Shown in pieces: positions 18,062 through 63,765 of a DNA stretch of 64,000 nt; the stretch's first letter is position 1; every line of letters starts with the position of its first letter. The notes below the pieces were generated by a model. It saw only the letters and a program-made list of their open reading frames with translations, had not been told where the DNA came from and did no database searches. The DNA comes from Candidatus Bathyarchaeota archaeon (lineage in GTDB: Archaea; Thermoproteota; Bathyarchaeia; Bathyarchaeales; Bathyarchaeaceae), in NCBI GenBank assembly GCA_963697165.1, contig CAVOMX010000018.1, positions 65,313 to 129,312 on the forward strand, read 5' to 3'. Position numbers and translations under genes: made by a program.

Positions 18062-18175
18062 AGAAGGGTTTGCTGAGGCTTCTACACAGTTGTTGATGAG
18101 TAAGGTCACATTCAACCTTTTTTCAAGGGGGAAAGAATGTGTACTCCTGTGCTTGAGCCATTTCAGCCCCATTCT
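18062..18175. ncRNA. bulge-helix-bulge-type hairpin element, copy A
   Basis: GGG-TTT-GCTG-AGGCT ... AGCCA-TTT-CAGC-CCC; inner stems CACAG/CTGTG, GAGT/ACTC, CACATTC/GAATGTG; near-identical to copies at 60043 and 63658. Confidence 0.7.
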
Positions 18176-18645
18176 ATTCCTTTTATTAGTTCAAAAAAAG
18201 GGGGAAGATTTTTTGTGCATTGTATTGTATAAATAAATTTCATCATCCCAAAGCATTAATCAAGATTTTTTCTTTTATTGGTGTTACGAGTTCTGGTCGT
18301 TTTATGTTGAAAAAATGGCAATTGGTTCCGTTGTAGAAAACAGTTGGTTTAGGAAATAGATTGCATTTACCGTTGATTTTTCCCCCGTTGATCAATATTG
18401 GATTATGAGCAATTGATCCGAGTAACGACCATTACTCATTAACAAATAATTATGTAAAGTATTTAGAATATAAAATTTTGCATAAAATGATGAAGAAATA
18501 ACAGTTCCTTTTGATAAACAATTTATTATTTCCCCGAACGCACATTTTCATTCAAACATAAACCTAGGGTATCTTGACTAAGGGGATTTGTCTATAAGGA
18601 TATAGTTGGATTAGACCTTCTGTCGATTGACTTGAAGCTGCCCCT

Positions 18646-19467
18646 TCACGGTGACGCTGGAGCGAGCATCGGTGGATAGGAGTCCGAAGGATATTGAAGG
18701 TGAATCAACAGTATGAGCCCTAAGACTGTGGAATGCCACTTTTCGATATCAGGAGAATCCCAGCTTCCATCAGCATTCTGGTTCGCGATGACACACTCAA
18801 TAAAGGCATCGTCTACCCGTTCGCCCTGACCCGCCAGGCATAGGAAAGCTGCAGCTTCAAGCTCGATGTCATAAACCGACGAGTCTGAATTAATTAATTC
18901 AGCATTAGCACGATATATATCTTCAACAAAATCTTGGGAGATTACCTCTTCACAACCGTTCTCTTGAATCCATATCCAAGCTAGTAGTACATGAGTAAGA
19001 TTGTATCCTCCCTTTTTTGCCGCTTCCTCAAGCATCTCAGGATAATTTTTAGGTAGCCCCAACCGATCACAATATAATGCAGGGATAACGAAAATGTTGG
19101 TTTCACCCTGCTTATTCGCTTCATAAAAATCTGAAGGCGCAGGTTGATTGTTTTTATCTGCAATGCGTCGAAATACAGACATAGTTGGTGCAATAAGCGA
19201 ATTGCTGAAAATTTCTTCGTCAAAACGCTGCAAGGCATCCGCGAACTCTAAAATTCCAAAGCGACGATAAATTACGTCGAGAAAAAGCAGGGCGTACGGA
19301 TCGCGCGAGCCCTCGAAGAAGTCAATCGCTTTTTCGACCGCTACCAAATAATCTGATTGGACTGGTAAGTCTGGCGAAGGGTGCAGCATTAGAAATACTA
19401 CCAATAGACTGCATAACGCGGTTATAGCAAAAGCCAAAAAGAAAGCTCTACGTTTATTGATTTTCAT
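18646..19467 (-). CDS. membrane-anchored/secreted protein with prenyltransferase-like QW motif
   Basis: N-terminal hydrophobic helix; 'QNADGSW' motif. Confidence 0.6.
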   Translation of the reverse strand: MKINKRRAFFLAFAITALCSLLVVFLMLHPSPDLPVQSDYLVAVEKAIDFFEGSRDPYALLFLDVIYRRFGILEFADALQRFDEEIFSNSLIAPTMSVFRRIADKNNQPAPSDFYEANKQGETNIFVIPALYCDRLGLPKNYPEMLEEAAKKGGYNLTHVLLAWIWIQENGCEEVISQDFVEDIYRANAELINSDSSVYDIELEAAAFLCLAGQGERVDDAFIECVIANQNADGSWDSPDIEKWHSTVLGLILLIHLQYPSDSYPPMLAPASP

Positions 19468-19600
19468 AATTGTTTTCTATCCTTCCTTTTGCAAACATTA
19501 AACCAATTTTTTTCAACTTTTCCTAAACTTTTGTTATAAATCTATTTGTCATGCTTATAGGTTAAAAAAATTTTGCATGATCACCTCCCTAAGAATACTT

Positions 19601-19703
19601 GGACGACAAAGGTCAAGCTAAAAAATACTTACTTTTTCATCCTAGGATGTTATTTTGAACTAATAATAGATATAACATTAAGAGTGTCAGCATCTCACTG
19701 ACA
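19601..19703 (-). promoter_or_regulatory. shared promoter cassette copy 1: operator TGTCAG-N7-CTGACA (19685-19703), TATA-like box, 5' leader hairpin (19601-19642)
   Basis: perfect 6-bp inverted repeat; same architecture at 23812, 59643, 63275; lies between divergent TATA-like boxes next to trmB. Confidence 0.7.
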
Positions 19704-19752
19704 AATTTTATATAATTAATAAGTTCTAAATAACGTTGGGGAGAAACAAATT

Positions 19753-20562
19753 TTGGGTAGTGCGGGGAATATTCAAACCTTTACCCGTTTAGGTTTTACT
19801 GCTAACCAAGCAAAAGTATACCTTGCTCTTATTGACAGAGAGTTTTCTGCTGTAAAAGAAATCCAAAAAACCTCAGAAGTGCCTCGCCAAGAAATTTACA
19901 AAATCTTATCCACACTTCAAGAGATGGGTCTTCTACAATCAACATTAACTAGACCCGTCATGTTTAAAACAATTCCAATCCAACAAGCAGTCTCCTTTTT
20001 ATTGGAAAGAAAAATCAAGGAAACAGAAAATCTGCAAAAAGAGGCAGAATCATTGGTAGAGAATTATCAACATGAAAATCATAATAATCAAGTTCAGGAA
20101 TTTAAGCCCCAGTTTGTTTTAATCTCAAAACAAGAAGCATCCATAACGAAAAGGCGAGACGAGATTGATAACGCTCAATTGAGCCTCGATTTCATCACGT
20201 CATGGAAGAGATTTCCACTAACAATTCGTACCTTCAGAGAAAATGGAAAAAAAGCCTTAGAAAGAAAAGTGAAAATAAGGGTTATACTAGAAAAGCCAAA
20301 AGACATGAATGAGCTACCAGAGGAAATGTATGATTTCGAGAAATTCTCTAATTATCAACTCAGATATATTATTGATCCCCCTAAAGCGATAGCAGCAATT
20401 TTCGATAAGAAAAAGGCAATAATCAAAACCTCTGCATTAGGAGGTCTGGCAGACGCTCCAGCTTTATGGTCTGACAACCCATGTTTTCTATCAATATTAT
20501 CTGACTATTTTGAGTTAATGTGGATAACAGCAATAGAACATTCACCAGAACAGATTTTTTAA
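19753..20562 (+). CDS. TrmB-family transcription regulator
   Basis: 'LGFTANQAKVYLAL...VPRQEIYKILSTLQEMGL...RPVMFKTIP' HTH and C-terminal effector domain 'AIFDKK'. Confidence 0.9.
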   Translation: MGSAGNIQTFTRLGFTANQAKVYLALIDREFSAVKEIQKTSEVPRQEIYKILSTLQEMGLLQSTLTRPVMFKTIPIQQAVSFLLERKIKETENLQKEAESLVENYQHENHNNQVQEFKPQFVLISKQEASITKRRDEIDNAQLSLDFITSWKRFPLTIRTFRENGKKALERKVKIRVILEKPKDMNELPEEMYDFEKFSNYQLRYIIDPPKAIAAIFDKKKAIIKTSALGGLADAPALWSDNPCFLSILSDYFELMWITAIEHSPEQIF

Positions 20563-20721
20563 GAACATCCTGATGTGCTCAAAGAGTAATACTAAATGAT
20601 AATTTAGCCGAAATGTTCGTCTGGGTGACCACATCTCCCGATTAATTCCCCCTTTTTCCAGCTTTTCTGAAATAAAGATCACCATATAAAGAGTAGTCTA
20701 ACAAGGTTTAACGCCAGGAAT

Positions 20722-20834
20722 AAGGGGTTTCCTGAGGTTAAACACGGGAAATTATGAGAGAGAAAACATGGAAATTTATACTATTATACTCATTTTTTAA
20801 TCGGTCTTTTTTCCTGTATTTACTCCTTTTCAGT
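20722..20834. repeat. degenerate hairpin element, copy G
   Basis: GGGG-TTT-CCTG-AGG ... CCT-TTT-CAGT; shares ACGGGAA and GAGAGAAAACATGG with copy F; outer helix lost. Confidence 0.5.
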
Positions 20835-20880
20835 ATGCTGGAGAAATTTTGGCCTGAAGAAACGCGAATGAAAAATAATG

Positions 20881-21005
20881 TAGGAAGAAGGGTTTGCTGA
20901 GGCTTTAGCACAGTCGTTGATGAGTGATGAAACAATTATAGGCCGAATAGAGGAGAATCATGTTTCAGTCTTCTGTGTTTGAGCCTTTTCAGTCCCTTAT
21001 TCCTA
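20881..21005. ncRNA. bulge-helix-bulge-type hairpin element, copy B
   Basis: TAGGAAgAAGGG-TTT-GCTG-AGGCT ... AGCCT-TTT-CAGT-CCCTTaTTCCTA; inner stem replaced by TGAAACA/TGTTTCA. Confidence 0.7.
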
Positions 21006-21047
21006 TAATCTTTAACTCCCACAAAAAAAGGGAGGGAAAATTTGGGA

Positions 21048-23776
21048 TTATTTTCGCTTTTTGTAATACCCAGAAAGCTGCTACGCCTACTACTGCTAGC
21101 AACAACTACAGCTGCGATGATTGCGACTTCGGTGGTGATCAAAGGTGTTTCAGGGGTTGGCTCTGGCGAAGGCGAGGGTGACGGTTCAGGTGAGGGTGAA
21201 GGCGATGGCGAAGGTGAAGGTTCAGGTGAAGGCGATGGCGAAGGTGATGGAGAAGGTGAAGGTGATGGCGAAGGCGAAGGTGAAGGTTCAGGTTCTATTG
21301 GACCACCAGGTGAAGTTGCTGGACCTACTGTAACCCATGTAGTAGAAGATGAGCTACCGTAGGAGTCGTCTGCTTCAAAAGATGCAATTATCTTGTATGT
21401 GCCTTCTGCTGTTGGAGTCCAAGCTTTTCCAAAGGTTCCCGAATATCCGTCAGTTGTTACAGTCCCGATATCAACATACGATCCATCTTCAGCTATTGCA
21501 CTAAGAACTACTGGAACCCCAGTAATCGTCTCGTTGTGCCAAATGCCGTCAATTGGATACCCGAAGAATAGGTATTGCATTTGAGTATTCATAGAATCTG
21601 CAGATACGCATGGTGTGCCTGACAGATCTGGACTCATGTCAAGGACACTTCCTGTTATCGTCATAGCCGTTCCTTTTGGTACAGCAGTTAATGGACCCAT
21701 AACTGTTGTTTCGCTTTCACCTTTGCCGAAGACATACATGTATCCGTCATTGCTGGTAATTGTGAGGTATCCGTCTGCTATTGGACCTGGACCTCCCCAA
21801 GTCCATGGTCCCTCTAGTTTCCATACTGGCTCGCCTGTAATAGCGTCCACACAGTTTACTCCCCATCCTCTTGTGATGGGCGGAGTTGGAGTGTGCTCGT
21901 TATTTAATGTGTAGAGTTTTCCATCAGCAATCCAAGCATCTACTATCGAACGAATATACTGTTGTGCCGATCATGTCACGATATGGAGTTTCGTATACGC
22001 TTGATGCTGGGTCTTCGTATTTCCATACTATGTCCCCAGTGTCCCAGTCAAAGGCATAGATACCGTCGTAGGATTGTCGGTAAAACATGCCGTAAGCTGA
22101 CTCTATAGCGTATCCTCCGAAGCTGGCTTCTCCCCAAGGATATTCCATCAAATCGCTTGTCCATGCTAGGGTTCCTGTAGCTAGATTCCAACTTTGAAAT
22201 ACCCGCCTTTGAATAGTATTGCGACTTTTCCATGGTCTGCGACAGAAACTGATCCGCTATACATACCTTCGGAGGGCAATTCAACTTCCCAGAGCTGTTC
22301 ACCTGTTAGCAGGTTATAACCTTGTACTTTTGTTCCATAGGATTGCTCCCATTTGAGGTGGAGTTATACTGCTATATGTTGCACCATAGCCTGATTCGAA
22401 GTCATACAGAGTAGGAATACTGCTTCTCGCGTAGGATGTGTTGCTTATTATATCGGGTTCACGCCCACGGCCGATATTACCGAAACCAGCTGGCTTTTGC
22501 GCAGTGCTCCAGTTGATTAAACGGTATTCAGGGTGCCTGTCGCCGATGATTCTGTATGCTCAACGCATAGCAGTTCCGGTAGTACAACGCTGAGGACGTT
22601 AATGCTGGAATTTCCACGTCTAAACCTAAAGCTCCAGTGAATGGATTATACTTCTTCAGACGACCACCGCCTATGTAAATAAGACTTGCATAGCCTATAT
22701 CTCCAAAAGCGCGCCCTGAACCGCCAGGAACTTCTCCACTTCCCTCATCGTATTCGATGTATTGGGGTGTACCGTCAACATCTGTCTTTTCCCAGTAGAT
22801 TTCACCTGTACGTAAATCATAGCACTGCCAAACGCTTCCTGTAGTTCCATCCGGCAACACTTTTGTAACTGTTTGGTAGCATCTTCCAGCATAGATTATG
22901 TTTGGTGTACCTGGATCCCCGCTCATTTGGAACATTGGGACGTTCGATCCTCTTCTCGCTTCCCCTCCGACTACGCCAGCTATGTCTCCTTGTCGTCTCC
23001 ACACTATGTGAGATGTCTCTGGTGCCTCGCGATACGGAAGGAAATCATATCTGTCACTATAGAATCTGTTTGTGTCAGCTGGCCAGTCTGATCCCACTCC
23101 CGGACCATGCCATGGATAGTTTCCTGCTATTGATGCCCACTCTCTGTTCACAAATTGTATGGGTCGTGTCCAGTAGTCGGTTGGAAGAGCTAGACTCAGG
23201 CCAAGAATATACAATGTCTTCTTGTACTGTCAAGTTCCTGCTTTGCAGTGGAGGTAGGTCTATAGTAGCAATCATCATCAAAGTGGATGGTGACACCAGC
23301 TACGGTCGCACCACCAGCGATATGCTTGGTAGTCTCCTGCTGGGAAATAGCTTCCAGGGAAGATAAACTGGATTGTCCATGTACCAACCTGGTCAACTAT
23401 CCATGGGAACCACGATGTTGAGTCTCCACGATAGGTAGGCAATGTGTAGTTCGGTTTCATGTCCTGAGGGATTTGTGATTACGACTGTGTAATCTGAGTG
23501 GTAGCGGACTACATGAGTTGGGGGCTCAAGCCACATGTTAACTAGGATTTCCTGGTTAACTCCTACGGGGTTAGGTCTGAAGCTGAGATAAGCTTTGGTG
23601 TCGACTTCGAAACTAGGAGTTACGCCAGCAGGAAGAGGTATTGAACCACCTTCTTCCACTCCTCCTGTACCTTGAGCTTGTATTGAAACAGTTGTCATTA
23701 GCATAAAAGCAGAAATCATCATAAGAACAATAACGATTGTAGCTGTTAATTTTGTTTTGTTTATTGAAAATTTCAA
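21048..23776 (-). CDS. large PQQ-like beta-propeller surface protein, paralog 1 (several frameshifts)
   Basis: signal peptide; 'YLSFRPNPVGVNQ', 'LPTDYWTRP', 'CYDLRTGEIYWE', 'YAFDWDTGDIVWKY', 'IADGYL', 'VFGKGES'; Pro-Ser linker, C-terminal TM helix and basic tail. Confidence 0.85.
21160..21295 (-). repeat. coding Pro-Ser (PS)n low-complexity linker
   Basis: hexamer repeats encoding EPEPSPSPSP... just before the TM anchor. Confidence 0.9.
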
Positions 23777-23811
23777 TTTTTTTTCTCCTTTATTTCATTT
23801 TTTTATTTTTT

Positions 23812-23913
23812 TGGGAAAGAAATTAAGCTAAAAAATGCTTACTAATTCCCCCAGAATGTTGTGTTGTAACAAAGATGTATTTAATATTAATTGTTTCAGC
23901 TTCCTAACTGACA
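23812..23913 (-). promoter_or_regulatory. shared promoter cassette copy 2 (leader hairpin 23812-23853; operator TTTCAG-N8-CTGACA 23894-23913)
   Basis: alignable with 19601, 59643, 63275; upstream of propeller paralog 1. Confidence 0.65.
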
Positions 23914-24016
23914 ACTTATGAACCATTAACATATTCTGATAACGATTAGAAGAAACAAATTTTGTTTTGTGTGCCCGAAAAGGTTTATTAACTGTTCTTT
24001 GTTTCTTAGCTACAAG

Positions 24017-24065
24017 TTCCTATGGGATGTGACCCGTTAGGGTTGAACCGAAAGAATGTGAGGAA
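24017..24065 (+). promoter_or_regulatory. structured 5' leader of rpl15e (candidate ribosomal leader)
   Basis: TTCCT/AGGAA closing stem and ACCC-GTTA-GGGT hairpin between BRE/TATA GAAAAGGTTTATTAA (23977-23991) and the ATG. Confidence 0.45.
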
Positions 24066-24071
24066 TAAGAA

Positions 24072-24646
24072 ATGGCATACAAATATATTGCAGAGGCTTG
24101 GAAAAAGCCAAATGAATCCTTTGTTAAGGACCTAATGTGGCAAAGAGCCATAACATGGAGAAAACAACACGCAATTCTTAAGAATCGAAAGACCAACCCG
24201 ACTAGACCGTGCAAGAAACCTTGGATACAAGGCAAAGCAGGGCATAGTAATGGCTCGGGTTCGAGTTAGACGATCAGGATTCAGGAAAAGTAAGACCAAC
24301 TGGCGGTCGCAGACAGAAACGGATGGGTGTCAACAAATTCAAAGTCGGCAAAAACATGAGATTGATTGCCGAGGAACGTGCTGGTAGACGTTTTCCGAAC
24401 TTAGAAGTTCTAAACTCCTACTGGGTATGGGAAGATGGACGCTTCAAATGGTACGAAGTAATAATGGTTGACCCCATGATCTTGCCTGATCATCCAGTAG
24501 CATTCCAGACAAGACGCGTATTCCGTGGCTTAACCAGTGCAGGCAAACAGGCTCGTGGACTACACAACAGAGGATTAGGCGCAGAAAAAGTTAGACCAAG
24601 CAAAAAAGCAATCCTAAAACGAAGAGCCAAACATCAACGCAAATAA
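24072..24646 (+). CDS. rpl15e: 50S ribosomal protein L15e (frameshift near 24182)
   Basis: '[13 protein letters not shown]' and '[37 protein letters not shown]...[10 protein letters not shown]'. Confidence 0.95.
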
Positions 24647-24772
24647 GTACAAGGGGCGTAGCCACGTTTTTTGATGGCACCCAACAAAATTTTCTTCTTT
24701 TTCTTATATTTTTTTGTTTCATGTTACTTGACATATTTATATCAAGTGACGTTATAGAATTCTGATGCGAGA

Positions 24773-25229
24773 GTGAGATATGATTTGTCTCAGCTGCCTA
24801 TAGCCTACGTGGATATCCGATTCTGTGCCCACGCCACCGAAGACCTAGACAAGGTCATGGAGGCAATTCACAATATTTTGCCAAACGACCAAACTGAAGA
24901 AATAGCATTTAACAAAAGCGTCTTAGAGGGGCATTACGGTAACCCAATAACCTTTTTTGAAGCAAGAATCAAGGATAAAGAAACAATTAGGGTATTAGTT
25001 GAGAAATCTGTCAGCTAATCTTGGTTCCTTGGATAAAGATGAGTTAGGCAGAGAAATAAACCGTTACTTTGAGAAAGGAAGTCTCTACATTCGACTGGAC
25101 AAGCAAGCTGCATTTCAAGGCAAAATCAAGCTCGTTACATCAGACCCCATACGCGTACGTATAAGATTTAGAAAATCGAAAATCGACGATGTAACCGAGA
25201 TTTGCAGAGAAATCGGGATGCTAACATGA
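24773..25229 (+). CDS. COG1325 RNA-binding protein (frameshifted)
   Basis: 'HATEDLDKV', 'GHYGNPI', 'LYIRLDKQAA'; usual neighbour of rpl15e/rnp3. Confidence 0.85.
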
Positions 25230-25955
25230 AACGGTTCGCTGACTTGCATCTTCGGGTACCACTAAAAGACATTTCTCAGACAGAAAAGATGGTATTAAAG
25301 CCCAAGAGCTAGGCTACAGCATAATAGGAATACCAATATCACCCCATGCATCACGAGAACAAATCAGCCAACTCAAGCAAATCTGCAGAGACGCAAAAGT
25401 AGATTTTGTTTCACGAATCAACCTTTCTCCCAGAAACTCCAAACGAACTACTAAATGACCTCCGCCAATTCAGACGAAAATTCGAAATCATATGCAGTAA
25501 GATGCGACACAAAAGACGTTGCCAGACAAGCAGCAAAAGACAGACGAGTAGACTTACTCCAATTTTCTGTTACAAACCTCCGCAAAAGATTCTTTGACGA
25601 ACAAGAAGCTGAACTTGCCTCGCAGGCTCTCTCATCACTCGAAATCGAGTTGGCTCCAATACTGCAGTTAACAAGTTTTTCCAGAATCCGCCTTATATCC
25701 AGTCTAAGAAAGGAAGTGGCAACAGCAGAAAGAGCAGGTGTGCCAATCATACTTTCCAGCGGCGCAACAACTGAACAGCTTATGAGAGGACCACGCGACT
25801 ATGCCGCATTGACAACCATCTTCGACTTGTCTTTACCCTCTGCATTGAAGGCTGTGTCGGAAACTCCGTGGGTTACGGTTGAAAGAAACAGGAAAAAATT
25901 GAGTCCAGATTATGTGGCTCCGGGAATACGGGTTGTAGGAAGGAAAACCGTTTGA
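25226..25955 (+). CDS. rnp3: RNase P protein component 3 (Rpp30), frameshifted
   Basis: 'FADLHL' start, 'RRVDLL', 'PIILSSGA...MRGPRD'; operon context. Confidence 0.85.
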
Positions 25956-26266
25956 TTAAACGAGAAAAGAGACGCTATTTAGCTCTCAAAGTTGAATGCA
26001 AGCAGCCACCAGATGAACTTGCAGTATTGGATGCTGTTTATGCTTCGGTTCAGAGGCTCTTTGGCGAGTATGGCGCCAGCCAAGCAAACATCAAACCGAT
26101 AAAATATCTTCCAGAAAAAAGCCAATTTGTTATCCGCTGTTCTCACCTAATGCTTGAGCGGGTCAGAGCTGCCATCGCCTCAACTGTTGAAGTAAACGGA
26201 ATAAAAGCAGCAGTTCATGTAGTGGGCGTCTCGGGAACACTGAAGGCGCTATCCAAAAAGACATAA
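25952..26266 (+). CDS. rnp2: RNase P protein component 2 (Pop5/Rpp14)
   Basis: 'REKRRYL', 'LFGEYG', 'VSGTLK'. Confidence 0.9.
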   Translation: MIKREKRRYLALKVECKQPPDELAVLDAVYASVQRLFGEYGASQANIKPIKYLPEKSQFVIRCSHLMLERVRAAIASTVEVNGIKAAVHVVGVSGTLKALSKKT

Positions 26267-26275
26267 AAAAAGAGA

Positions 26276-26293
26276 AGGGGTTGCGCCCTTTTT
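26276..26293. terminator. short hairpin/T-tract between convergent rnp2 and amt
   Basis: AAGGG-gttgcg-CCCTT followed by T-run, A-run to the left. Confidence 0.4.
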
Positions 26294-26312
26294 AGGCGCT
26301 GACATAGGCTTA

Positions 26313-27628: not shown

Positions 27629-27643
27629 TGTTTATCATTCCTA

Positions 27644-28385: not shown

Positions 28386-28485
28386 ACTGAATCACCTCTC
28401 ATTCAATTAAAATGAGGTAATATTGACAATTTGTATATAAATATTTCCTTTTCTCTGAATGTTTTTTTAGAAAAATAACTATTAA

Positions 28486-31834: not shown

Positions 31835-31859
31835 AACAGAATGCTATACCGTAGTATGC

Positions 31860-36269: not shown

Positions 36270-36345
36270 TGGAGGTGGGGAAGGGAATTGAACCCTTATA
36301 GAGCAGCTCTGCAGGCTGCCGCCTGAACCATTCAGCCACCCCACC
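36270..36345 (-). tRNA. tRNA-Cys(GCA), intronless, CCA encoded
   Basis: GGTGGGG/CCCCACC acceptor, GCAGC-CTGCAGA-GCTGC anticodon arm, AAGGG-TTCAATT-CCCTT T arm, discriminator T, CCA. Confidence 0.95.
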
Positions 36346-50778: not shown

Positions 50779-50786
50779 ATGCGAAT

Positions 50787-53322: not shown

Positions 53323-53335
53323 TTCTGTCCTCTGC

Positions 53336-54760: not shown

Positions 54761-55023
54761 CTACAGTTCACCTTCTAAACAACACCTTTTCGTTTTCGGT
54801 GCTGATTACATTTTCGATTATATTCACATATCACATGAACAATTGCATAGTGTAATCAGAAAGCATAAACAATGTCTAAATCGCATAATATTCATGATTG
54901 TGGTTTCCAATTTAGTGAGGAACATTTCACGCAATCTCTTTTAACAAAAAATAGCTGTAATAAAACAGAATGCCTACGGAATAAGCTTCCTTTTTGTTCA
55001 CCACTTTTGTGGCGCTTAGCAAG

Positions 55024-55197
55024 TTAGAGTCGTGTTTGTAGCAAGTCGAGTTGTACGCTCATTGGATTGTGTGCAAGTTTTCTTCCACAAGAGGGGCATT
55101 TGCAATCATTTTTTGCTCGAATATAATATGGTGAAATGACTTCGCGTCCTGTGAACAAGGTTTTGCCGCAGCCGTGGCAGGATATAGATACAGCCAT
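55024..55197 (-). CDS. small Zn-ribbon protein
   Basis: CHGCG ... CPSCG in 57 aa; GGTGG SD. Confidence 0.7.
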   Translation of the reverse strand: MAVSISCHGCGKTLFTGREVISPYYIRAKNDCKCPSCGRKLAHNPMSVQLDLLQTRL

Positions 55198-55710
55198 TTT
55201 AAGCCACCAGAACAAAATTTGTTTCTAGAAGAGTCTGGATTTCATGGTATCTTTCTTGTTCGGCAAGAATCTGGATGTAACTTAGCCGTTTCATTACCTG
55301 TTCTTTATAGTTTATTTTATTCAACGATTATCCTCCTAATGTTACCGCATTTTGCTGAATTGCATAATAAGACTGGTGCCGAAACGACTTACAGAAGCGG
55401 GGAGAGAGAAGAGTGAAAGTAAAAAGAAAAATATCAATTTTTATATTTCTGCTAAGAAAATAGTGGTAATAAAGAAGAAACAAAAGTTGTTGAAGCGAGT
55501 TTCTAGTGCATCTGTGAAAAAGCATGAACGTCTGAATTTCAGAAAACGTAAATAAGCTCCAAAGACTTTACCAAAACGGTGAAAATCGAGTGAAAATTGC
55601 GGTTTTCAACATTAGTGGATAGATCTCCCGCATCTCCCCTTTTTTATCAAATAATAAATGAAAAATTCTATAACTTATAAATATCAGAAAAATTTTAATT
55701 TGATATGTGA

Positions 55711-55814
55711 AAGAAGGGTGTACCGAGGATTAATACGGGAATTTAGAGAGAAAAAACATGGGAACTCAATACACATGAATTTATTTTTTACTTTAGCCTT
55801 TTCATTCCCTTCTT
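55711..55814. repeat. hairpin element, copy F (degenerate central helix)
   Basis: AAGAAGGG-TGT-ACCG-AGG ... CCT-TTT-CATT-CCCTTCTT: 8-bp outer helix and 3/4/3 spacing kept. Confidence 0.55.
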
Positions 55815-55825
55815 CTGCGTGCGCT

Positions 55826-56722
55826 TCAGATTTCTCCTCTTAGCATGCCTATTCCTAAACCTAAGAGTGTTATGGGCCAGATCTCAGTGAATAGTAGAAA
55901 ATTCCACGAGTTAGTGAGTGATGTATACACGATGAAAATGCAAAAGAATAGACCAAGCGTGATCAGAGCCAGAGCTATTAGTCTTATGGTTAATTTTCTG
56001 TTCCCAGTTCTTGAACCACTGTAGAAACCCGAAATGGTGAAGATTAACGAAAGGGACAGAGTTAATATAGAATTAAGGAATCCTAAGGAAGTAGTTCCTG
56101 AAAAAAGGAAGTCAAGTCCCTCAATTTGAGTCATACCTAACCAACTGAATACGTTAATTATCCATATGCCAGTCAAATATCCTATTGCTGCTACACCCCC
56201 CCATTTTAGAATTTCATATTTATCGCTTCTCTGGAGGCGCCAAACCTTGAGGGATAAGAATATCAAGAGCGGTGAAACCAGAAAGATATACAAAATATAA
56301 GAAATAGGTACAAGCAATGTTACGCTACCACCGAAAAGGATGATGATAGTAGTTGGTAATTGCAAGAACCAAAATATTGCCTCGAAAAGGAGTGCAACTG
56401 TAATGTATTTTTTAATGTCAGCATAAGCTCTAGCCTTGGAACCCCAAAATTGATAAACCGCAAACAAAGACAAACAAACTCCAATGACTCGAAGAACATT
56501 TCCTGTTACTGCAGGTAGATTGTAATAATAAAATCTTGGGGATTGAATTAGTTGAGGACTAAAAGTACGATAAATAAGTTCGAGACTGCTAAATGCCCAG
56601 TAAATCCCATACGCTAAAAGAGAACAAAGTGTAATCGAAACCCAAAACTTAGTCCAACGAGTAAATTCCAAATTGATGCCATTAAAGTAGGTGTTCTTTT
56701 CATTTTGCATTTTTATTTTCAT
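55826..56722 (-). CDS. multi-pass membrane protein
   Basis: 298 aa, ~8 TM helices; flanked by hairpin copies E and F. Confidence 0.75.
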   Translation of the reverse strand: MKIKMQNEKNTYFNGINLEFTRWTKFWVSITLCSLLAYGIYWAFSSLELIYRTFSPQLIQSPRFYYYNLPAVTGNVLRVIGVCLSLFAVYQFWGSKARAYADIKKYITVALLFEAIFWFLQLPTTIIILFGGSVTLLVPISYILYIFLVSPLLIFLSLKVWRLQRSDKYEILKWGGVAAIGYLTGIWIINVFSWLGMTQIEGLDFLFSGTTSLGFLNSILTLSLSLIFTISGFYSGSRTGNRKLTIRLIALALITLGLFFCIFIVYTSLTNSWNFLLFTEIWPITLLGLGIGMLRGEI

Positions 56723-56950
56723 CCTTTCTTTTTTTGTTCTATGAAAAATCTTACTTTAAAACAAACCTATTAAACTGCGTGTGGGTAGACTACCAACCAA
56801 GCATAATCAATGTTATAAATAATTTTATTCACTTACAATAAGCAATAAAAGGTCATAAAAATTAGGTAAATAAAAAAATCTCATAAAAGTAACAGACAAC
56901 AATTTTGGAAGGCATTCAAAAAGATGAAAAAAGAAATAAAATGTTTTGGA

Positions 56951-57052
56951 AGAAGGGATTTCTGAAGGTTTGGAGGGGTTTTAGGATGAAAAACATGGAA
57001 ATCCTAAACAGACAACTTCATTTTTTATCTTTAGCCTTTTTCAGTCCCTTCT
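56951..57052. ncRNA. bulge-helix-bulge-type hairpin element, copy E
   Basis: AGAAGGGA-TTT-CTGA-AGG ... CCT-TTT-TCAG-TCCCTTCT; apical stem TTTAGGAT/ATCCTAAA. Confidence 0.68.
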
Positions 57053-57099
57053 CCTGTTTACTTTGTTTTACTCCCAAAAAAAGGGGGAGGAAATTTGGT

Positions 57100-59618
57100 T
57101 TATTCTCTCCTTCTAAGCAACATGAAAGCGACTACGCCAATAAGTGCGGCTGCAATTATTGCAATTGCGATTGCTACTTCAGTGCTGATCAAAGGTTCAG
57201 GTGTTGGTTCAGGTTCTATTTCTCCACCTGATGCAGGTGCCGGACCAACTGTTACGTATGTTGTATCGGCTGAACTAAAGTAGGATTCTGATCCTAGGAA
57301 AGATGCCTTTATTGCGTGTTTTCCTTCAGCTGAAGGTGTCCAGGTGAATGCAAAGTTTCCGAAAGCGTCGCTAGTTACTTCGTCAATATCTTGCCAATTT
57401 CCATCTGCCATTTGATATGCTAATTTAACAGGCACACCGGTTGGTGTTGGTGGATTGTTCAGTAATGTTGCATTCTGCATATGCAAGTAGTCCATGAACT
57501 CGCTCATGTCGTCATCGGCAATAGCAGGAACTCCGTTCGGGAATCTTACTTGAGACGTGGAGTCTTGGGAAATAGGAGACATATCAAGAACTGAACCCTT
57601 AATAGTAAATGCAGTTCCTTTCGGCACTGCAGTATCCGGTGCAGTTACTGTTGTTTTTGTTCGGACCTTTACCGACGCAATAGATAATTTCATCGTACAT
57701 TCCATCAGCTATAACGTAACCATTAGCAGCAGCCATGGGATAAATTCCACCATTTAAAGTATATTTAAGGTCTCCTGTAGCAGCGTCAATACATACCATC
57801 ATTCCAAGCCTTGGCATAGGATTGATTTGGTATAAAATGGAATAGCCTGCGTATCCGTAGAGATTACCGCCTACCATCACCAGTCCACAAACAAAAGGCA
57901 CTGCATTATTGGGGTACTCAGTCGAAGGTATAGGCTCGGAACGCCATAATGTTTTTCCTGTTGCCAAACTCAAAGCAGCCATCGTGCCATCGGGGAACAT
58001 AAGATACAATTTTTCGTAGTCATGGGTCTCAGCACCGTAGATGGTCCATGTTGAAGCCCATGGAGAATCTGCAAAGCTTTCACTTTCCCACAATTCAGCG
58101 CCAGTAAGGATAGAGTAACAGTGGAACGATGAAGCAACACAATCAAATACAATAAAGCCGTCGACTCCATAGAAACTGATTTGCTCGTTCACTAAGCTCG
58201 GATAATCTATGAGAAATGGACCCCATAATAAAGAACCATCAGTTGTGCTGTAACCCCGGTACTCGTTGGGATTACTCCTCACCAGAATCGTGGACATATC
58301 TGTTGACACTCCGATGGCTATAATGCTGCGATTGGCTAGTGCCGCTGGCAGGTCGCGTGTCCACTCGATTCCTGTCGGCCAATTATTGCTGCGCACTTTT
58401 GTTAAGTTCCAAGCAAACAGGGTGCCACGTGCTGTCCCATAGGCAAGGTTGGTGCCGTCAATTAATTTGTAGTTCCAATAATAGCCGGCACTTAAGTAAT
58501 TCCAGTAGCCCGGATTATTTGGGTTAGCTATGCTGCTCCAAGTAGCGTTAGCAATTTCCCTCCTAAGTGCTCCAGTTTGGGGATCATAATAGCTCCATGT
58601 AGAACCAGAGGTTCCCAACAAATATCCCGTTGTGGATGCTCCATAAGAACTGGCGAGAACTACTGAAGGATCTAAATTGGCTTGTTGATGTGGGTTTCCA
58701 GGCAGGTGTATACCATGATTAATCGAGCCATCTGCCATGTACAAGACTTTTTCCAGTTGTTTGATCGATGCATGCAAACTTGCCGGAATTGGGTATATTT
58801 ATGAATACTTTGCCTTCCATGATTACACAACTAGGAGCATTTATACCAGTGGTATAGCTAAGGCTGCCATATTGTCCGCCTATGAGGCCTCCTGATTTAC
58901 GCGGTTGGCTCCAAAGTATGTGTGCAGTGTTAGGTCCTGAACCATAGGGTTGCCATAAACGACAAGTGGGATTGTTAATACTAGATCCTTGGAGGCTACT
59001 GCCGAGCCAGTCGCCTGAGATTTGGTGCCATTCTCTGTTGTTAGCGCTTATTGGGTAGTCCCAGTAGGTATTTGGTAGTTCTGCCCATGGATAACCATTA
59101 AGCAAACCAGCAAGTTGTTCCTCTTCTGTTACAGTAAAGGAAAAAGAGTTACTCGTAAGAGCCATATATTGGACCGTTCCAGACTCATCAGTTAATTCAT
59201 GTGCAGGCATCGTAAACGAGACACTCCATTCACCCACCATATCAGGTTCATAAAAAAAGTATAAAGCTGCAAGTGATTGGGTTTGTCCTGGAACATATTG
59301 ACCTGTACCATCGACGGGCATAAAGGTGTCTTTTGTTCCATTAGGTCTTACGAACGTTGCTGTTACTCCGAAAAAGCCTCGAAAATCTGAATCATAATCA
59401 TAGTAGTTAGGTAAAGGAAAGACCCATAGGTTCACAGTTGCTGTTTGGCCAACTCCAATTAGTGTTGGTGCGACGGTGATGTAACCTACAGTTTTCACTG
59501 GCTGAGGAACACCAACCTGAGCATTGACTGAAACATTCGCAACTAATAGAAAACTAGAAGTTACAAATATTGCAAGTGTAATTATAGCTGTCAATTTTGT
59601 TTTGTTAATTTTTTGCAT
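57100..59618 (-). CDS. large PQQ-like beta-propeller surface protein, paralog 2 (frameshifted)
   Basis: signal peptide MQKINKTKLTA..., 'NREW', 'PNTAHILW', repeated 'TG..LW' blades, 'VPKGTAFTIKGSVLDMSP', TM anchor and RRR tail. Confidence 0.85.
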
Positions 59619-59642
59619 TTTTCATCATCCTTTTTTATTTTT

Positions 59643-59744
59643 TTGGGAAAAAGAATTAGGCAAAATGCTCATTCATTTCCCCAAGAATATTATCTGTGTA
59701 AATAAGAAGTATATAATTTTAATTGCATCAGCATCTAACTGACA
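59643..59744 (-). promoter_or_regulatory. shared promoter cassette copy 3 (leader hairpin 59643-59684; operator CATCAG-N7-CTGACA 59726-59744)
   Basis: same order and spacing as the other three copies. Confidence 0.65.
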
Positions 59745-60042
59745 ATCTTTAAATCATTAATAATCAAATCATCAGTTTTCAGTATATATTTACCGTAAAA
59801 ATTCTTACCCACTCCCAACTCTAAATGAAACCTCAATAAACCCAACAAAACACCCCCAGGTGTGCTTAAAAGTTCCAAAATATCGCTGAAAAGGTTTATT
59901 CAGCCTATATTGGAGATGTCACCCGAAGTTATCCCGCAAACTCCCCCTTTTTAAAAGAATTACATACCCTATTACTCAAATTGATTACATTTAGTAAAAG
60001 TATTAGTTTATATTCAAAGTTTGATTATGAGCAACTAAAGGA

Positions 60043-60149
60043 AGAAGGGTTTGCTGAAGCTCTAGCACAGTTGTTGATGAGTGATGGTCACATCCAACCT
60101 AGGGGAAAGAATGTGTACTCCTGTGTTTTGAGCCTTCTCAGCCCCTTCT
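60043..60149. ncRNA. bulge-helix-bulge-type hairpin element, copy C (strict BHB on minus strand)
   Basis: minus strand AGAAGGG-GCUG-AGA-AGGCUC ... GAGCUU-CAGC-AAA-CCCUUCU. Confidence 0.75.
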
Positions 60150-60236
60150 GTTTCTCTTGGTAGTTCCAAAAAAAGAGGGAAGATTATTTTTATGCATTGT
60201 ATTGTATGAATAATTTTCATCATTCCAAAGCATTAA

Positions 60237-60425
60237 TCAAGTTTTTTTCTGTTGTTCTAATCTACTGTCTGCTGAATCGTGTTCATCTGCTATTTCGGAG
60301 ACTTCTTTTCTAATGGCAAGTTTTGTTTCTTTCTCTGGAAAGCCTTCTTCTGGTCCGCAATAGACTAGCTTAAAATCTGGTACCCGATGATGCCAAATCC
60401 CGCTCTTACGTTTTCGACGACTCAT
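60237..60425 (-). CDS. small hypothetical protein (62 aa), repeated family
   Basis: GGGGGAG SD; 'PDFKLVYCGPEEGFPEK' recurs at the right window edge. Confidence 0.7.
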   Translation of the reverse strand: MSRRKRKSGIWHHRVPDFKLVYCGPEEGFPEKETKLAIRKEVSEIADEHDSADSRLEQQKKT

Positions 60426-60555
60426 TGACAACTCCCCCAAATAGCCAAATCATTTTCATTATTCTCCTTTCTATTTTAAACTATCAAACCTCCTTTCAAT
60501 CCTCAAATTTCTATTTGGCTACTCCACACAAAAAAAGGGGAGGGAAAATTGTGGC

Positions 60556-63233
60556 TTATTTTCGTTTTCTGAGTGCCCAGAAGCTAACTACGCCTATGAT
60601 GCTGACGATTGCGACAGCTGCGATAATAGCTACAGTGGTTAGTAGTGGTGTTTCAGTTGACGGTTCGATTGGAACATTCGGTGATGATGCTGGACCGACT
60701 GTAACTGCGGTTGATGCTCCTGAACTACCATAAGATTCGTCGCCTGCAAATGATGCAATGATCTTGTAGGTCCCTTCTGCTTCGGACGTCCATGGTAGTG
60801 CAAAAGTACCATAGTAGCCATCTGAAAGGTTACAACGCCGATGTCAATGTATGATGCCGTCGAATCGATCGCCGTTAATGTCACAGGAACACCAGTTATT
60901 GTTTCGTCGCCCCAAAGCCCTCGATTGGCATCTGCAGGTGCAGGTACTCCATTTGTGTTGCCATTGATTCTTTGGAGACACATGGTGTATCTGGCTGAGC
61001 AGGAGACATATCAAGTACAGTGCCTTTTATTGTTAAAGCCGTTCCTTTAGGTACTGCAACATCCGGAGCTGTAACTGTTGTTTCGCTTTTACCCTTACCG
61101 AAAGCATATGTGTACCCGTCATAGCCTGAGGCTGTCAGATAACCGTCGGCAATAGGACCTATAGATCCCCATATCTTTGTCTTCCATATGAGCTCGCCTG
61201 TTGTAACATTCATGCAGTGAATACCCCAGCCTCTAGTGATAGGTTGAGTAGGTGTGTGCTCAGTGTTGTATGCGTAGACTTTTCCGTCAGCAACCCAGCC
61301 AGCACCATTGAAAGAATACATCGTGTTGCCATCCTCATCCGTATAGGGAGTTTCGTATTGACTAAAAGCTGGCGCTTCATACTTCCAGACTATGCTTCCG
61401 TCATCCCAGTCAAACGCGTAGACTCCAGAGTAGCCGAATCGGAAGAACATGCCATAGGCTGTGCACATACTGTAAGCTCCGAAGCCACATATGTCCCAAG
61501 GACTGTCCATCTGCTCGCTCTTCCATAAGAGGTCCCCTGTATATGAGTCAAAGCACATGTAATATCCACCATTACCTGTAATGGGCGAATCCTGCATCAG
61601 AATAGCAAGTTTTCCGTGTTGAGCTGCTGAGCCGAGTGCATGGTATACAGATTCATAGAAACTTTTGTCCCATAGCAATTCACCCGTTTTCAGACTATAA
61701 GCGGCTATCCGTGTTCCATACCTGATTCCCGATGCGTTATCGTAGGGGATATATGCATATGGAAAACCCGAAACTGGCGTTTCGAACCAACTTGTTTCCT
61801 CGCAACGAAAAACTATGCCTGACTCATAATCTCGCATCTGAGCAAAGTTACCTATGTTATTGCGCGGCCAGGTTATGTTGCTTATTATCCTATCATTGAA
61901 GTCGCTACTACTTCCAGCGGTAGTCCAGTTGATCAAACGGTAAATGCCTGCTGAGGGGGTTCCGTATTCTCCAGGTCCTCCTGTAGAGCTAAGTGTCTGC
62001 ACGCTTAAGGCGTAGCCGTTCATGCAGTACTCAGTAGAAGTAAATGAAGGAATATCATGGTCCAAGGTCATAGCTCCAGTTGATGGATTGAACTTATGGA
62101 GTTTATTTCCGCCTATCCGTACAAGACTTGCTGTTGGACCTGGTTGATGCTTCAGCTCCGGGTACGGATGGAAGTCCATAGGAATATTCAATGTATGCCG
62201 GTGCAGATACACCAGTCCGTTCCCAGAATATTTCCCCAGTACGTATATCATAGCACGTCCATACGCTCTGTGTCTCCCCATTAAATGGTTTTGTAACACT
62301 CTGGTAAGCCCTTCCCTGATAGACAATATTTGGAGTTCCGCCACCACTAGTCATGCTAAGATACGCATTGTCCCCTCCGTGGATACCTGATATTTGGTTC
62401 AATTGTCTCCATGCTACGTGCGCACTTTCTGGTCCCTGTACCCATGGAGTGAAACGTTGGCAACCACTGTAGTAAGGGCTCGTTCCAGGGTAGAGTTCGT
62501 CCCATACAGGACCTCCTGATGGGCCCCTCCACGGGTAGTCTCCTAGTATTGTCCACCATTCTCTGTGCTCCTTAACTGCGGGTCGCGTCCAGTAGTCTGT
62601 TGGTAGATCAGATTCAGGCCAAGAATACACCATTTCCTCTTGCACTGTAAGTGTTCGCTCTGAAGTAGAAGTGGGTTTATAGTACATTGATCGAGTGAAG
62701 CTGTCGGTATAACCACCCCTTCTGGTCTCCGTGGGCATAGTGTAGTTTCCTGGTGGGAAATATTGTCCCGGGACGTCAAATTTTAGTGTCCATGTGCCAA
62801 CCTGATTTGGAGTGAATTCAAACCATGCCGTTGAATCCGCAAAGTAGGAATCCACCAATATGACTTCTTGTGTTCCATCTGGCTTAGACAATGTTACCTT
62901 GTAATCTGTGAAGTATCGAGTAAAACAAGGACCAGGCACACTCCACATGTTCACCAAGATGGGCTGGTTAACCCCTACAGGGTTAGGTCTAAAGCTAAGA
63001 TAGGGATCGACTTTTAATTCAACATCGGGAGTAACGCCTGCAGGCAGTCGTATACCACCGCTATCCTGCAAATTCTCAGCATCTTCTCCCCACCATCCCA
63101 TGCCATATTCTTCATTATCAATATACCATTGAGCTTGCACTAGTGTGATAGAAGGTATTATGAGAAAAGAAATTGTTAAAAGAACTATGATGATTGTTGC
63201 GGTTAGTTTGGTTTTGTTCATTGAATTTTTCAT
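60556..63233 (-). CDS. large PQQ-like beta-propeller surface protein, paralog 3 (frameshifted)
   Basis: collinear with paralog 1: 'YLSFRPNPVGVNQ', 'LPTDYWTRP', 'CYDIRTGEIFWE', 'YAFDWDDGSIVWKY', 'EHTPTQPITRGWG'; TM anchor and RKRK tail. Confidence 0.85.
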
Positions 63234-63274
63234 TTTTTCACCTTTTTAGTTTTTTTACATTTTTTATTTTTGAT

Positions 63275-63370
63275 GGGGGATCAAGCTAAAAAATACTTGT
63301 TTTTCCCCCTAAACTGTTCTCTTATACAGAACATGTATTTAACATTAAGAGTGTCAGCCCCTGACTGACA
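63275..63370 (-). promoter_or_regulatory. shared promoter cassette copy 4 (leader hairpin 63275-63309; operator TGTCAG-N7-CTGACA 63352-63370)
   Basis: perfect inverted repeat; 'CAAGCTAAAAAATACTT' and 'AACATTAAGAGTGTCAGC' identical to copy 1. Confidence 0.7.
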
Positions 63371-63451
63371 ACTTCTGAATCATTAATACATTATAAATAT
63401 GATAGCCCCTGACTGACAACTTCTGAATCATTAATACATTATTAATATGAT
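63356..63451. repeat. 48-bp tandem direct repeat (2 units, 1 mismatch)
   Basis: AGCCCCTGACTGACAACTTCTGAATCATTAATACATTAT(A/T)AATATGAT at 63356 and 63404. Confidence 0.9.
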
Positions 63452-63657
63452 AGGAGAGAAACAAATTGTCTCTTAAAAAAATATTCGAATTATGAACTCG
63501 GTTACATTTTTAATCATTCTAAACCCTAAGGAACTTGGAGCGAAGAATAAAAATAATGCTTGATAATGAAATAGTATCCATTGATTAGGACTTTTTTAGC
63601 AACATTTTTCGGTTCCTTTTCTCTCGAAATAAGTTATTCTACAATTTCGTACTAAAC

Positions 63658-63765
63658 AGAAGGGTTTGCTGGGGCTTTAGCACAGTTGTTGATTAGTGAT
63701 GGTCACATCCAACCTAGGGGAAAGAATGTGTACTCCTGTGTTTTGAGCCTTCTCAGCCCCATTCT
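63658..63765. ncRNA. bulge-helix-bulge-type hairpin element, copy D
   Basis: GGG-TTT-GCTG-GGGCT ... AGCCT-TCT-CAGC-CCC; interior nearly identical to copy C. Confidence 0.7.

Follow-up and report, generated by a model that had tools for sequence, protein, structure and literature searches.

A conserved, multicopy double-bulge hairpin element behind anchor-encoding surface-protein genes of Bathyarchaeia

Introduction

The motif known as bulge-helix-bulge (BHB), which is cut by the archaeal splicing endonuclease EndA, is described, in the available text of two papers, as a 4-bp helix with two 3-nt bulges, and heteromeric forms of the enzyme are described there as accepting variable bulges and independent sites of the types hBH and HBh' (PMC7714728, PMC4090602). 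The available text of PMC7714728 cites only two protein-gene transcripts as EndA substrates, namely the cbf5 pre-mRNA intron of Crenarchaeota and the intron in the 5' untranslated region of HVO_1309 of Haloferax volcanii, both of which are single-copy, have the canonical 3-4-3 arrangement of bulge, helix and bulge, and have been shown to be cleaved. Additionally, rRNA processing stems with a BHB yield circular pre-rRNAs (PMC7714728, PMC12918454). As far as these sources go, the single-copy introns of cbf5 and HVO_1309 are the nearest described cases to the element reported here, a family of hairpins in a 64,000-nt stretch of DNA from Candidatus Bathyarchaeota archaeon (assembly GCA_963697165.1, contig CAVOMX010000018.1, here called C18, positions 65313-129312). 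This whole stretch is referred to below as the window.

An earlier annotation of the window, made without database searches and called here the sequence-only reading, had drawn attention to seven of these hairpins and to the BHB-like geometry at their base. The analysis that followed it up identified the hairpins as copies of a conserved, undescribed non-coding element with a double-bulge base, tightly linked to the ends of genes that encode C-terminal membrane anchors. We tentatively propose that the element acts as a small RNA module in the sense of these genes, in which the double bulge may be a platform for a protein, with EndA as the best candidate, and the interior may be antisense to translation start regions.

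Results

The seven stretches aligned as one family (7 sequences, mean column identity 61%), and a long hairpin was predicted for each of them on either strand, in keeping with the single dispersed family of the sequence-only reading. The genome to which the window belongs comprises 1.99 Mb in 25 contigs, written below as C and a number, and is 81% complete. An iterated nhmmer profile run over all contigs recovered 23 copies, one of them partial, and a covariance model (R1) built on 22 of the nhmmer copies recovered 22. Of the 24 species of the genus that were sampled, 21 have the element. It also occurs on at least 121 metagenome contigs, and a broader covariance model (R2) located it in a second family of the order, in 5 of 15 genomes (genus g28, 3 of 3; g34, 1 of 5; g41, 1 of 1).

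At the gathering threshold, the sole Rfam match in the window was a tRNA-Cys, with no match to any of the hairpins, while a permissive scan gave only microRNA and C/D matches far below threshold. The viral contigs searched contained no match to the element, and no such family was described in the open-access papers and bioRxiv preprints searched, so that the suspicion of an undescribed family was upheld. The tRNA-Cys (36270-36345) is the only Rfam or ARAGORN gene in the window, and the hairpins indeed lie in neither tRNA nor rRNA. Pfam matches in the window (TackOD1, TrmB) are consistent with an archaeon.

The element is a rod of 125-150 nt with strong covariation. Its base, read on the plus strand (the forward strand of the window), begins with a purine-rich outer arm ending in GGG and four bases that are mostly TTTG, ATTT or ATAT, and continues with CTGA, GGCT, the interior, AGCC, TTT, TCAG, one base, and CCC with a pyrimidine-rich outer arm. 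RNAalifold on a MAFFT alignment gave a consensus of only 6 pairs, and the named structures and anchor-based counts were used instead. The pairing registers were examined without an alignment in the 70 of 80 copies that could be anchored on CTGA...TCAG. Pairing of the inner helix is seen only where a 3-nt bulge is left over (63, 61, 49, 53 and 42 of 70 Watson-Crick) and that of the outer helix only where 4 nt are set against 1 nt (61, 65, 60, 52, 58, 50 and 48 of about 70), and registers shifted by one base fail for both helices. Two 3-nt bulges thus lie on opposite strands, one a plain 3-nt bulge and the other a net 3-nt excess (4 versus 1). In the first bulge the length is conserved and the sequence is not (AAA, AAG, AUA, AUG, GUA, GUG, UAG, UUA, GAA).

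Of the checks proposed in the sequence-only reading, a covariance model returned homologues, and a count of covarying positions gave double changes in 17 of 21 pairs. In the set used for this count, of 58 copies from other species of the genus, the alignment of which had been fitted to the covariance model, 172 doubly changed cells were counted against 44.5 expected, and 91.5% of cells were paired versus 77.2% in shuffled and 38-57% in slid controls. The four central CUGA/UCAG pairs are near-invariant (55-57 of 58 copies).

The length of the central helix varies by one pair. Which form results depends on the partner of the single base that follows TCAG: pairing with the first of the four bases gives 3/4/3, and pairing with the last gives 3/5/3. 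Amongst the 59 copies (of 80) that could be parsed, 37 are 3/5/3 and 9 are 3/4/3, 2 can adopt either form, 6 have a G.T and 5 are unpaired at the fifth position; both spacing states show their own G:C to A:T covariation. The helices that flank the bulges measure 3-13 bp (outer), 4-5 bp (central) and at least 5 bp (inner). The sequence-only reading had reported a 3-nt bulge, a 4-nt helix and a 3-nt bulge in all copies and had held that loss of this spacing in homologues would count against it. The bulges withstand the register test, whereas the fixed 4-bp spacing does not hold, and the loss is therefore seen in part, in the 3/5/3 majority.

The native canonical tRNA introns of this genome have a bulge 3' of the central-helix strand that is cut after its second base, with the bulge sequences AAC and AAA. 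This BHB handedness is matched by the minus strand of the element only, which is the strand of the neighboring genes and carries likewise A-rich bulges (AAA); the plus strand is the mirror image. The handedness and A-rich bulges assigned to the minus strand in the sequence-only reading therefore agree with the native tRNA introns. In two native introns the minimum-energy fold likewise has a central helix of 5 bp. The processing stem of the 16S rRNA (C14:25951-27446 and flanks) is a relaxed BHB, in which a 4-bp UCCG/UGGA helix is bounded by 3x1 and 1x1 loops and not by clean 3-nt bulges.

Two separate EndA-family open reading frames (ORFs) of 185 and 193 aa were found in the genome, and their best PDB matches are chains of tRNA-splicing endonucleases. 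At each site of the element a 3-nt bulge lies between two helices, and with genes for a two-subunit EndA present, this corresponds to the relaxed hBH and HBh' sites as these two papers, PMC7714728 and PMC4090602, define them. The available text of PMC7714728 and PMC4090602 makes no statement on EndA and a 5-bp spacing. ARAGORN also predicted very long introns in this genome, of 284 nt in tRNA-Arg(CCT) (C11:138381-138756) and 132 nt in tRNA-Gln(TTG) (C16:44184-44408), as well as several non-canonical intron positions and 'tRNA-Pyl' and 'tRNA-Stop' calls with introns.

The gene context of the element has a recurrent order. In gene sense, a gene end coding for a hydrophobic helix and a basic tail (e.g., ...FWALRKRK and a stop codon) is followed after 10-35 nt by a C-rich run with T6-7 and, after a further 6-45 nt, by the big hairpin; in the genome of the window the C-rich run and T6-7 usually form the loop region of a small hairpin, CCCTCCC-T7-GGGAG. 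An automated test found such a C-terminal anchor end on the gene side of 47 of 57 copies in the genus set and 49 of 56 in the metagenome set, versus 1 of 57 and 4 of 56, respectively, on the opposite side. These counts refine the statement of the sequence-only reading that the copies follow surface-protein, membrane-protein or small genes. Several unrelated anchor classes precede elements, and in the second family (f9) 10 of the 13 copies examined again follow anchor genes and a CCCC-T6-AGTC tract. The C-rich and T-rich tracts look like a general terminator because they are also found after other genes.

Twelve paralogous units in the genome share a similarity that starts within the gene, continues up to the hairpin's far end and drops sharply beyond it. 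One anchor gene on C6 has the small hairpin (8940-8960) and lacks the big one. Homologues of the gene upstream of copy D (see below), found in 7 of 25 genomes of the genus, are without the element and are not syntenic downstream, so that no insertion boundary can be read from them. The flank on the other (left) side of the element is unconserved and AT-rich, with no positioned motif or TATA box, and the TATA-like tracts that the sequence-only reading had noted to the left of several copies were not confirmed as such.

Genus g28 has a stand-alone locus that is conserved in three species. In minus sense, its hairpin is preceded at a distance of about 49 nt by a conserved TTTAAAAA box and followed by T-tracts, and the promoter-like motif is repeated before the next gene. 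At these loci (L210, L211, L212) there are two instances of a conserved motif, TTGTCAGAAG-N-GGCACTTAYTCCAWRTSTTTAA: one stands about 170 nt upstream, ahead of the hairpin, and the other about 100 nt downstream, ahead of the next gene. The motif looks like a shared regulator site combined with a TATA box.

Directly abutting copies on the same strand often form tandem pairs (e.g., in genome G009 at C14:194146-194426, 197335-197602 and 200732-201004), and where paralogous surface genes stand in arrays such pairs are repeated at intervals of 3.2-3.4 kb; the second copy of one pair (L053) has the perfect 3-4-3 form. A single high-scoring match (91.7 bits; G185:C523:1276-1405, family f24) was found outside the two families of the order. 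It follows a typical anchor gene end, on a contig of 1.4 kb from a genome that comprises 550 contigs and has 5% contamination, and is probably due to a stray contig of the main genus and not a true occurrence.

Read in minus sense, the interior of the element contains a helix CACRG/CYGUG, a helix AAAUGAAAA/UUUUCAUUU and a variable tip, and the whole-stem replacements described for the interiors of the window copies were confirmed. Between the 3' strands of the two interior helices sits an unpaired UCUCCU-like block; a CUCC-type block was found in the minus-sense interior of 91 of 147 copies, versus 21 of 147 on the other strand. The block resembles an anti-Shine-Dalgarno sequence, since the 16S rRNA of this genome ends in ...GGAUCACCUCCU. 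C/D box small RNAs with a kink-turn were considered and rejected: CUGA and UGAUGA do turn up in some copies, though neither their order nor their spacing is right, UGAUGA shows no conservation between species, and the Rfam C/D models score 11-14 bits versus a gathering score of 50.

The interiors of one subfamily, called B-type, resemble gene starts. The interior of the copy at C1:74 is identical over 18 of 18 nt to the starts of the genes at C6:6302 and C6:31092 and over 18 of 19 nt to that at C12:159359, and the interior of the copy at C16:22975 matches 21 of 22 nt just upstream of the C6:6302 match, within the start region of that gene. All of these matches are in the sense of the plus strand of the element. 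The matched starts encode signal-peptide-like N-termini, including MEILKNKTKLTAIF... and MENLRNKKTKFTAIF..., and two of the genes, at C12:159359 and C6:31092, have elements of other subfamilies behind them. These start regions can be aligned with the window copies B, D and E over about 35 nt, and within the window the B-type start motif occurs only inside these three copies and at no gene start. In the minus-strand fold of copy E, the segment UUCCAUGUUUUUC lies in the apical loop, which displays the complement of a start region, the complement of the AUG included.

Genome G005 also contains start-region-like sequences, which lie on the gene strand some 2.6 kb upstream of two elements; the A-rich AUG core and a purine block are common to them and to element interiors, and one of them encodes MKKYTKIQTKLFAFF.... 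The interiors of copies B, D and E of this subfamily appear to copy a ribosome-binding and start region, and a gene-sense RNA would therefore be antisense to it. In part, then, the B-type interior is predicted to be antisense to the Shine-Dalgarno sequence and AUG of sister surface-protein genes. The tight link to C-terminal-anchor genes, the conserved inner architecture and this anti-TIR content (antisense to the start region) of copies B, D and E go beyond the sequence-only reading.

Wobble pairs were counted as a possible indicator of the strand. In the basal helices of the own-genome alignment (22 copies) there are 38 G.T and 32 A.C; the 1x1 mismatches in folds computed without G-U pairs (80 copies) comprise 25 G.T and 27 A.C; and the genus alignment holds 46 G.T, 41 A.C, 60 other mismatches and 1042 Watson-Crick cells. 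The tRNA acceptor stems of the genome, which served as a control, have 8 G.U versus 0 A.C. The wobble pairs favor neither strand, as the split G-U evidence of the sequence-only reading had suggested. Because the counts are symmetric, individual copies look weakly constrained, as would suit a multicopy family or an element maintained at the DNA level. What points to the minus strand as the transcribed one is the orientation of the genes and the one promoter-like locus in g28.

All seven copies in the window were matched by the covariance model on the minus strand, and their landmarks are given here on the plus strand. Copy A (18048-18186) belongs to subfamily 2 and has a 3-5-3 base: its outer arm (18058-18068) is followed by TTTG (18069-18072) and CTGA (18073-18076) and, beyond the interior, by the bulge ATT (18160-18162), TCAG (18163-18166), C (18167) and CCC (18168-18170). 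Copies B and C form a tandem pair (20707-21012). Copy B (20707-20853), which lies behind copy C, has TTTC at 20728-20731, CTGA at 20732-20735, a bulge at 20827-20829, TCAG at 20830-20833 and a start-region-like segment with its motif at 20763-20777; TATG instead of CCC follows TCAG, and it is indeed the only copy without an outer helix. Copy C (20872-21012) has TTTG (20893-20896), CTGA (20897-20900), a bulge (20986-20988), TCAG (20989-20992), T (20993) and CCC (20994-20996).

Copy D (55698-55825) has a weakened central helix of CCGA (55723-55726) and TCAT (55802-55805), a bulge at 55799-55801 and a start-region-like segment with its motif at 55753-55767. Copy E (56937-57064) is a strict 3-4-3, hBHBh'-like form on the minus strand, with GGGA ending at 56958, a bulge (56959-56961), CTGA (56962-56965), the second bulge (57038-57040), TCAG (57041-57044), TCCC (57045-57048) and a start-region-like motif (56990-57004). 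Copy F (60029-60161), a 3-5-3 form of subfamily 2, has TTTG (60050-60053), CTGA (60054-60057), the bulge TTC (60135-60137), TCAG (60138-60141), C, and CCC from 60143. Copy G (63644-63776), also of subfamily 2 and 3-5-3, has TTTG (63665-63668), a bulge (63750-63752) and TCAG (63753-63756), with one mismatch in that CTGG (63669-63672) replaces CTGA. The sequence-only reading had classed C and E as strict, A, B and D as relaxed, and F and G as degenerate. Copy E remains strict, while copy C is 3-4-3 plus one position that reads A.C on the minus or G.U on the plus strand; of the others, A and F are recast as 3-5-3 and G as 3-5-3 with a mismatch.

The small T-loop hairpins and genes described here beside the copies are on the minus strand. 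Between the gene end and copy C lies the small hairpin with its oligo-T tract, CCCTCCC-T7-GTGGGAG in gene sense (21016-21039). The gene upstream of copy C is a 304-aa ORF with a proline-rich linker (20936-21850), the frame of which stays open across the anchor region and the small hairpin and on into copy C. Compared with its paralogues, it has lost the stop codon and has extra bases in the anchor-tail region, which could reflect a pseudogene, an assembly error or a real extension. Copy D adjoins the stop codon of the ORF at 55826-56722 without a T-loop hairpin. Copy E is separated by a small hairpin with oligo-T (57071-57090) from the stop codon (57100-57102) of a 201-aa gene (57100-57705) that has a weak Big_3_5 match and the anchor ...VAFMLLRRRE at its end.

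For copy F, the segment at 60522-60558, 365 nt upstream in gene sense, holds the stop codon (60556-60558) and the first T-loop hairpin (60522-60547) of an anchor-coding frame ending in ...SFWALRKRK. A variant T-loop hairpin, TTCC-A7-GAGGGAA on the plus strand, stands beside copy F (60164-60182), with equivalents beside copy A (18190-18207) and copy G (63780-63792). Between copies of subfamily 2 and the first T-loop hairpin of the anchor gene lies a conserved stretch of about 340 nt, with the variant T-loop hairpin after the stretch; the stretch is found in the window at 60183-60521 and to the right of copies A and G, and elsewhere at C1:4010-4362 and C9:56180-56537. Beside copy F it contains an ORF of 67 aa (60237-60440, minus strand) that matched no family. 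Several surface-protein genes of the window, with minus-strand starts at 63233, 59618 and 56722, have the N-terminus M-x-x-x-N-K-T-K-L-T-A-... in common, and their start regions are A-rich and contain an AGGTG or AGGAT block; they therefore represent a surface-protein paralogue family that is conserved at both ends.

Discussion

Under the reading that we tentatively favor, the element would be expressed as RNA in the sense of the neighboring genes, i.e., from the minus strand of the window, either by read-through of the oligo-T tract or, in stand-alone copies, from a promoter of its own. The RNA would form a rod consisting of the outer helix, the net 3-nt bulge, CUGA/UCAG, the 3-nt bulge, two helices, the unpaired pyrimidine block, an AUG-containing helix and the variable tip. 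The symmetric double-bulge base may serve as a recognition platform for a dimeric protein, for which the two-subunit splicing endonuclease is the best candidate. EndA could cut both bulges as relaxed hBH and HBh' sites and so give an RNA of about 80-90 nt, which a ligase could circularize, with a predicted circle of about 79 nt for copy E and about 91 nt for copy A; taken alone, this EndA step is possible, though we lean towards doubting it. The released interior would be antisense to the ribosome-binding and start regions of surface-protein mRNAs, and the expression of one surface gene may thereby be coupled to the translation of its sisters or of itself.

Several observations weigh against this proposal. 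The canonical 4-bp separation of the bulges (hBHBh') is not kept across the family, although copy E has it, and a strict 4-bp ruler does not appear to be selected, because most parsed copies have 5 bp and both spacing states covary. The invariance of CUGA/UCAG and of the GCCUCAGCAAACCC arm suggests a sequence-specific recognition; to our knowledge EndA has no need of such recognition, and recognition by EndA leaves the invariant CUGA/UCAG unexplained. A terminator-like oligo-T tract intervenes between gene and element, and this tract is unlike the tRNA promoters of the genome (AAAG-CTTAAAWA). Amongst the interiors, start-region matches are limited to the B-type subfamily and their shared core is A-rich and of low complexity, while for the C-type and A-type interiors (copies C, A, F and G) no non-element site was found above the reversed-pattern control. 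No intron-less ("spliced") junction with matching context was found in the genome, and, as described above, the wobble pairs do not single out the gene strand. The objection from the 5-bp helix is softened, because two native tRNA introns also fold to 5 bp and the 16S stem has internal loops.

A purely cis-acting structure at the 3' end of highly expressed surface genes, such as a back-up or bidirectional terminator, an insulator or a block to 3' exonucleases, with neither an EndA cut nor a role in trans, is an unlikely alternative but the one that fares best. It would account well for the constant position of the element just past the oligo-T tract, its fixed orientation and the sharp end of the paralogous gene units at the far end of the hairpin. 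The outer helix, with its purine-rich 5' arm and U/C-rich 3' arm, would give a hairpin with a U-rich tail on both strands, and there are several T-runs in the second half of the plus strand. A terminator or stabilizer needs, however, no size-conserved bulges, no invariant CUGA/UCAG and no conserved inner loop and helix. Additionally, there are stand-alone copies with their own promoter-like box, the anchor gene on C6 retains the T-loop hairpin without the big one, and the start-region homology of the B-type interiors would be left unexplained.

Maintenance of a palindrome at the DNA level is an improbable explanation. The element would then be a site resembling a miniature inverted-repeat transposable element (MITE), or an attC-like folded-strand recombination site for surface-gene cassettes, in which template switching keeps the arms complementary. 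The lack of wobble bias, in contrast to the tRNA control, a mismatch spectrum that resembles the neutral decay of many copies, the multicopy and lineage-restricted distribution, and the arrays and tandem pairs in the same orientation would all be expected. In attC sites, extrahelical bases are combined with a variable terminal structure, which the conserved bulges and variable tip of the element recall. A cut-and-paste MITE is, however, contradicted by the fixed position and by the orientation, with anchor ends on the gene side of most copies and on the other side of almost none. The flanks examined show neither terminal-repeat tips nor target-site duplications, no IS200/IS605 TnpA or TnpB was found in the 81% complete genome, and the 11 tyrosine-recombinase matches all lie outside C18 and C19 and thus not beside the arrays. 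The alignments inspected show no GTTRRRY/RYYYAAC core at the base of the helix, and the viral contigs were without a match. Template switching would erase the bulges, yet these persist across two families. A MITE or other non-autonomous transposon is unlikely as an identification, with tips, duplications, orientation independence, an autonomous partner in the 81% complete genome and matches in the viral contigs all wanting, and an integron attC site was rejected for want of the core pair in the alignments inspected and of a tyrosine-recombinase match in C18 or C19.

An RNA read from the plus strand, initiated in the variable flank, would have mirror-image U bulges and could present a sense ribosome-binding site and AUG as a decoy for ribosomes or for a repressor that binds start regions; we regard it as decidedly improbable. 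Such an RNA would run antisense into the anchor-coding 3' end and stop at the T-rich complement of the Lys/Arg codons, and a T-rich tract does follow on the plus strand. Plus-strand folds are lower in energy in 52 of 80 copies (by a mean of 2.3 kcal/mol), an advantage expected from G+T richness alone, and GGAG with a start codon is found on the plus strand in 52 of 125 copies. The upstream flank is, however, unconserved and without a positioned TATA box, the promoter-like box of the stand-alone locus is on the other strand, and we know of no reader for a mirror-image handedness. A small plus-strand protein-coding gene starting at the GGAG...ATG inside the hairpin, which the well-spaced Shine-Dalgarno-like block and ATG of many copies and the overlap of some copies with ORFs of 60-128 aa might suggest, is effectively refuted, as ORFs from that ATG range from 3 to 123 aa in shifting frames with unrelated sequences, 73 of 125 copies lack the signal and the indels are not in multiples of three.

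A gene-sense small RNA module could be carried one step further, to EndA-excised circles of about 80-90 nt that silence the translation of sister coat genes and thus provide a post-transcriptional, one-at-a-time switch of surface variation built on the splicing machinery. This extension is speculative and rather unlikely. If the gene-sense reading holds, the splicing endonuclease would have a wider biological role, in gene regulation as well as in RNA maturation, and there would be a first clue to how the many surface proteins of Bathyarchaeia are controlled. Next to the two protein-gene transcripts cited as EndA substrates, a family with tens of copies per genome would be something new. The element is conserved in two or more families of an uncultured order of archaea and is linked to a single functional class of genes. 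Even without EndA, a well-supported new family of structured nucleic acids stands, with a strictly conserved but unexplained double-bulge platform and an invariant CUGA/UCAG core, and so does a testable link to translation start regions, whichever protein may be the reader.

Comparison with known systems

Like the introns of cbf5 and HVO_1309 (PMC7714728), the element places a double-bulge helix in the predicted transcript of a protein gene, would release a small and possibly circular RNA, and occurs in a genome that encodes the type of enzyme needed. Unlike them, it is present in 20-40 copies per genome, all 3' of genes, is mostly 3-5-3 and has an invariant central helix. With the BHB processing stems of rRNA (PMC7714728, PMC12918454) it shares a long helix of 5' and 3' flanks with a double bulge near its base; it differs from these stems in enclosing about 80-90 nt of regulatory-looking sequence and in being multicopy and linked to genes.

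The BHB introns in tRNA genes of Thermoproteales are reportedly mobile, with similar BHB-bounded sequences at many loci of a genome (Fujishima et al. 2010 are said to have described them). The element is likewise a family at many loci of one genome, but it lies behind protein genes and restores nothing recognizable, whereas those introns lie in tRNA genes and restore a tRNA.

Amongst DNA-level repeats, REP/BIME and Correia elements, further palindromic repeats between genes and MITEs are multicopy imperfect palindromes of about 100-150 bp that lie 3' in intergenic regions, are lineage-restricted and can affect mRNA ends. The element is also a multicopy, lineage-restricted, 3' intergenic imperfect palindrome, but its orientation and position are fixed to one class of genes, its inner architecture and bulges are conserved, and it has neither terminal-repeat tips nor duplications nor a partner transposase that could be found. 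The attC sites of integrons have an RYYYAAC/GTTRRRY core pair, and an integron integrase at the head of the array. The element resembles them in its place 3' of genes, its species-specific families, its conserved unpaired bases, its variable stems and tip and its lack of an RNA-type wobble bias; it differs in having no GTT/AAC core and no adjacent integrase, in its loose arrays, and in its association with paralogous genes instead of unrelated cassettes.

The proposed function has its closest parallel in bacteria, where CpxQ and SroC are trans-acting small RNAs derived from the 3' untranslated regions of single genes, released by RNase E and dependent on Hfq. As proposed here, the element would similarly supply a regulator from the 3' end of an mRNA, which an endonuclease sets free and which pairs with the ribosome-binding regions of other mRNAs. 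In contrast to CpxQ and SroC, the candidate releasing enzyme would be EndA, and the element is a repeated module carried by a whole family of genes.

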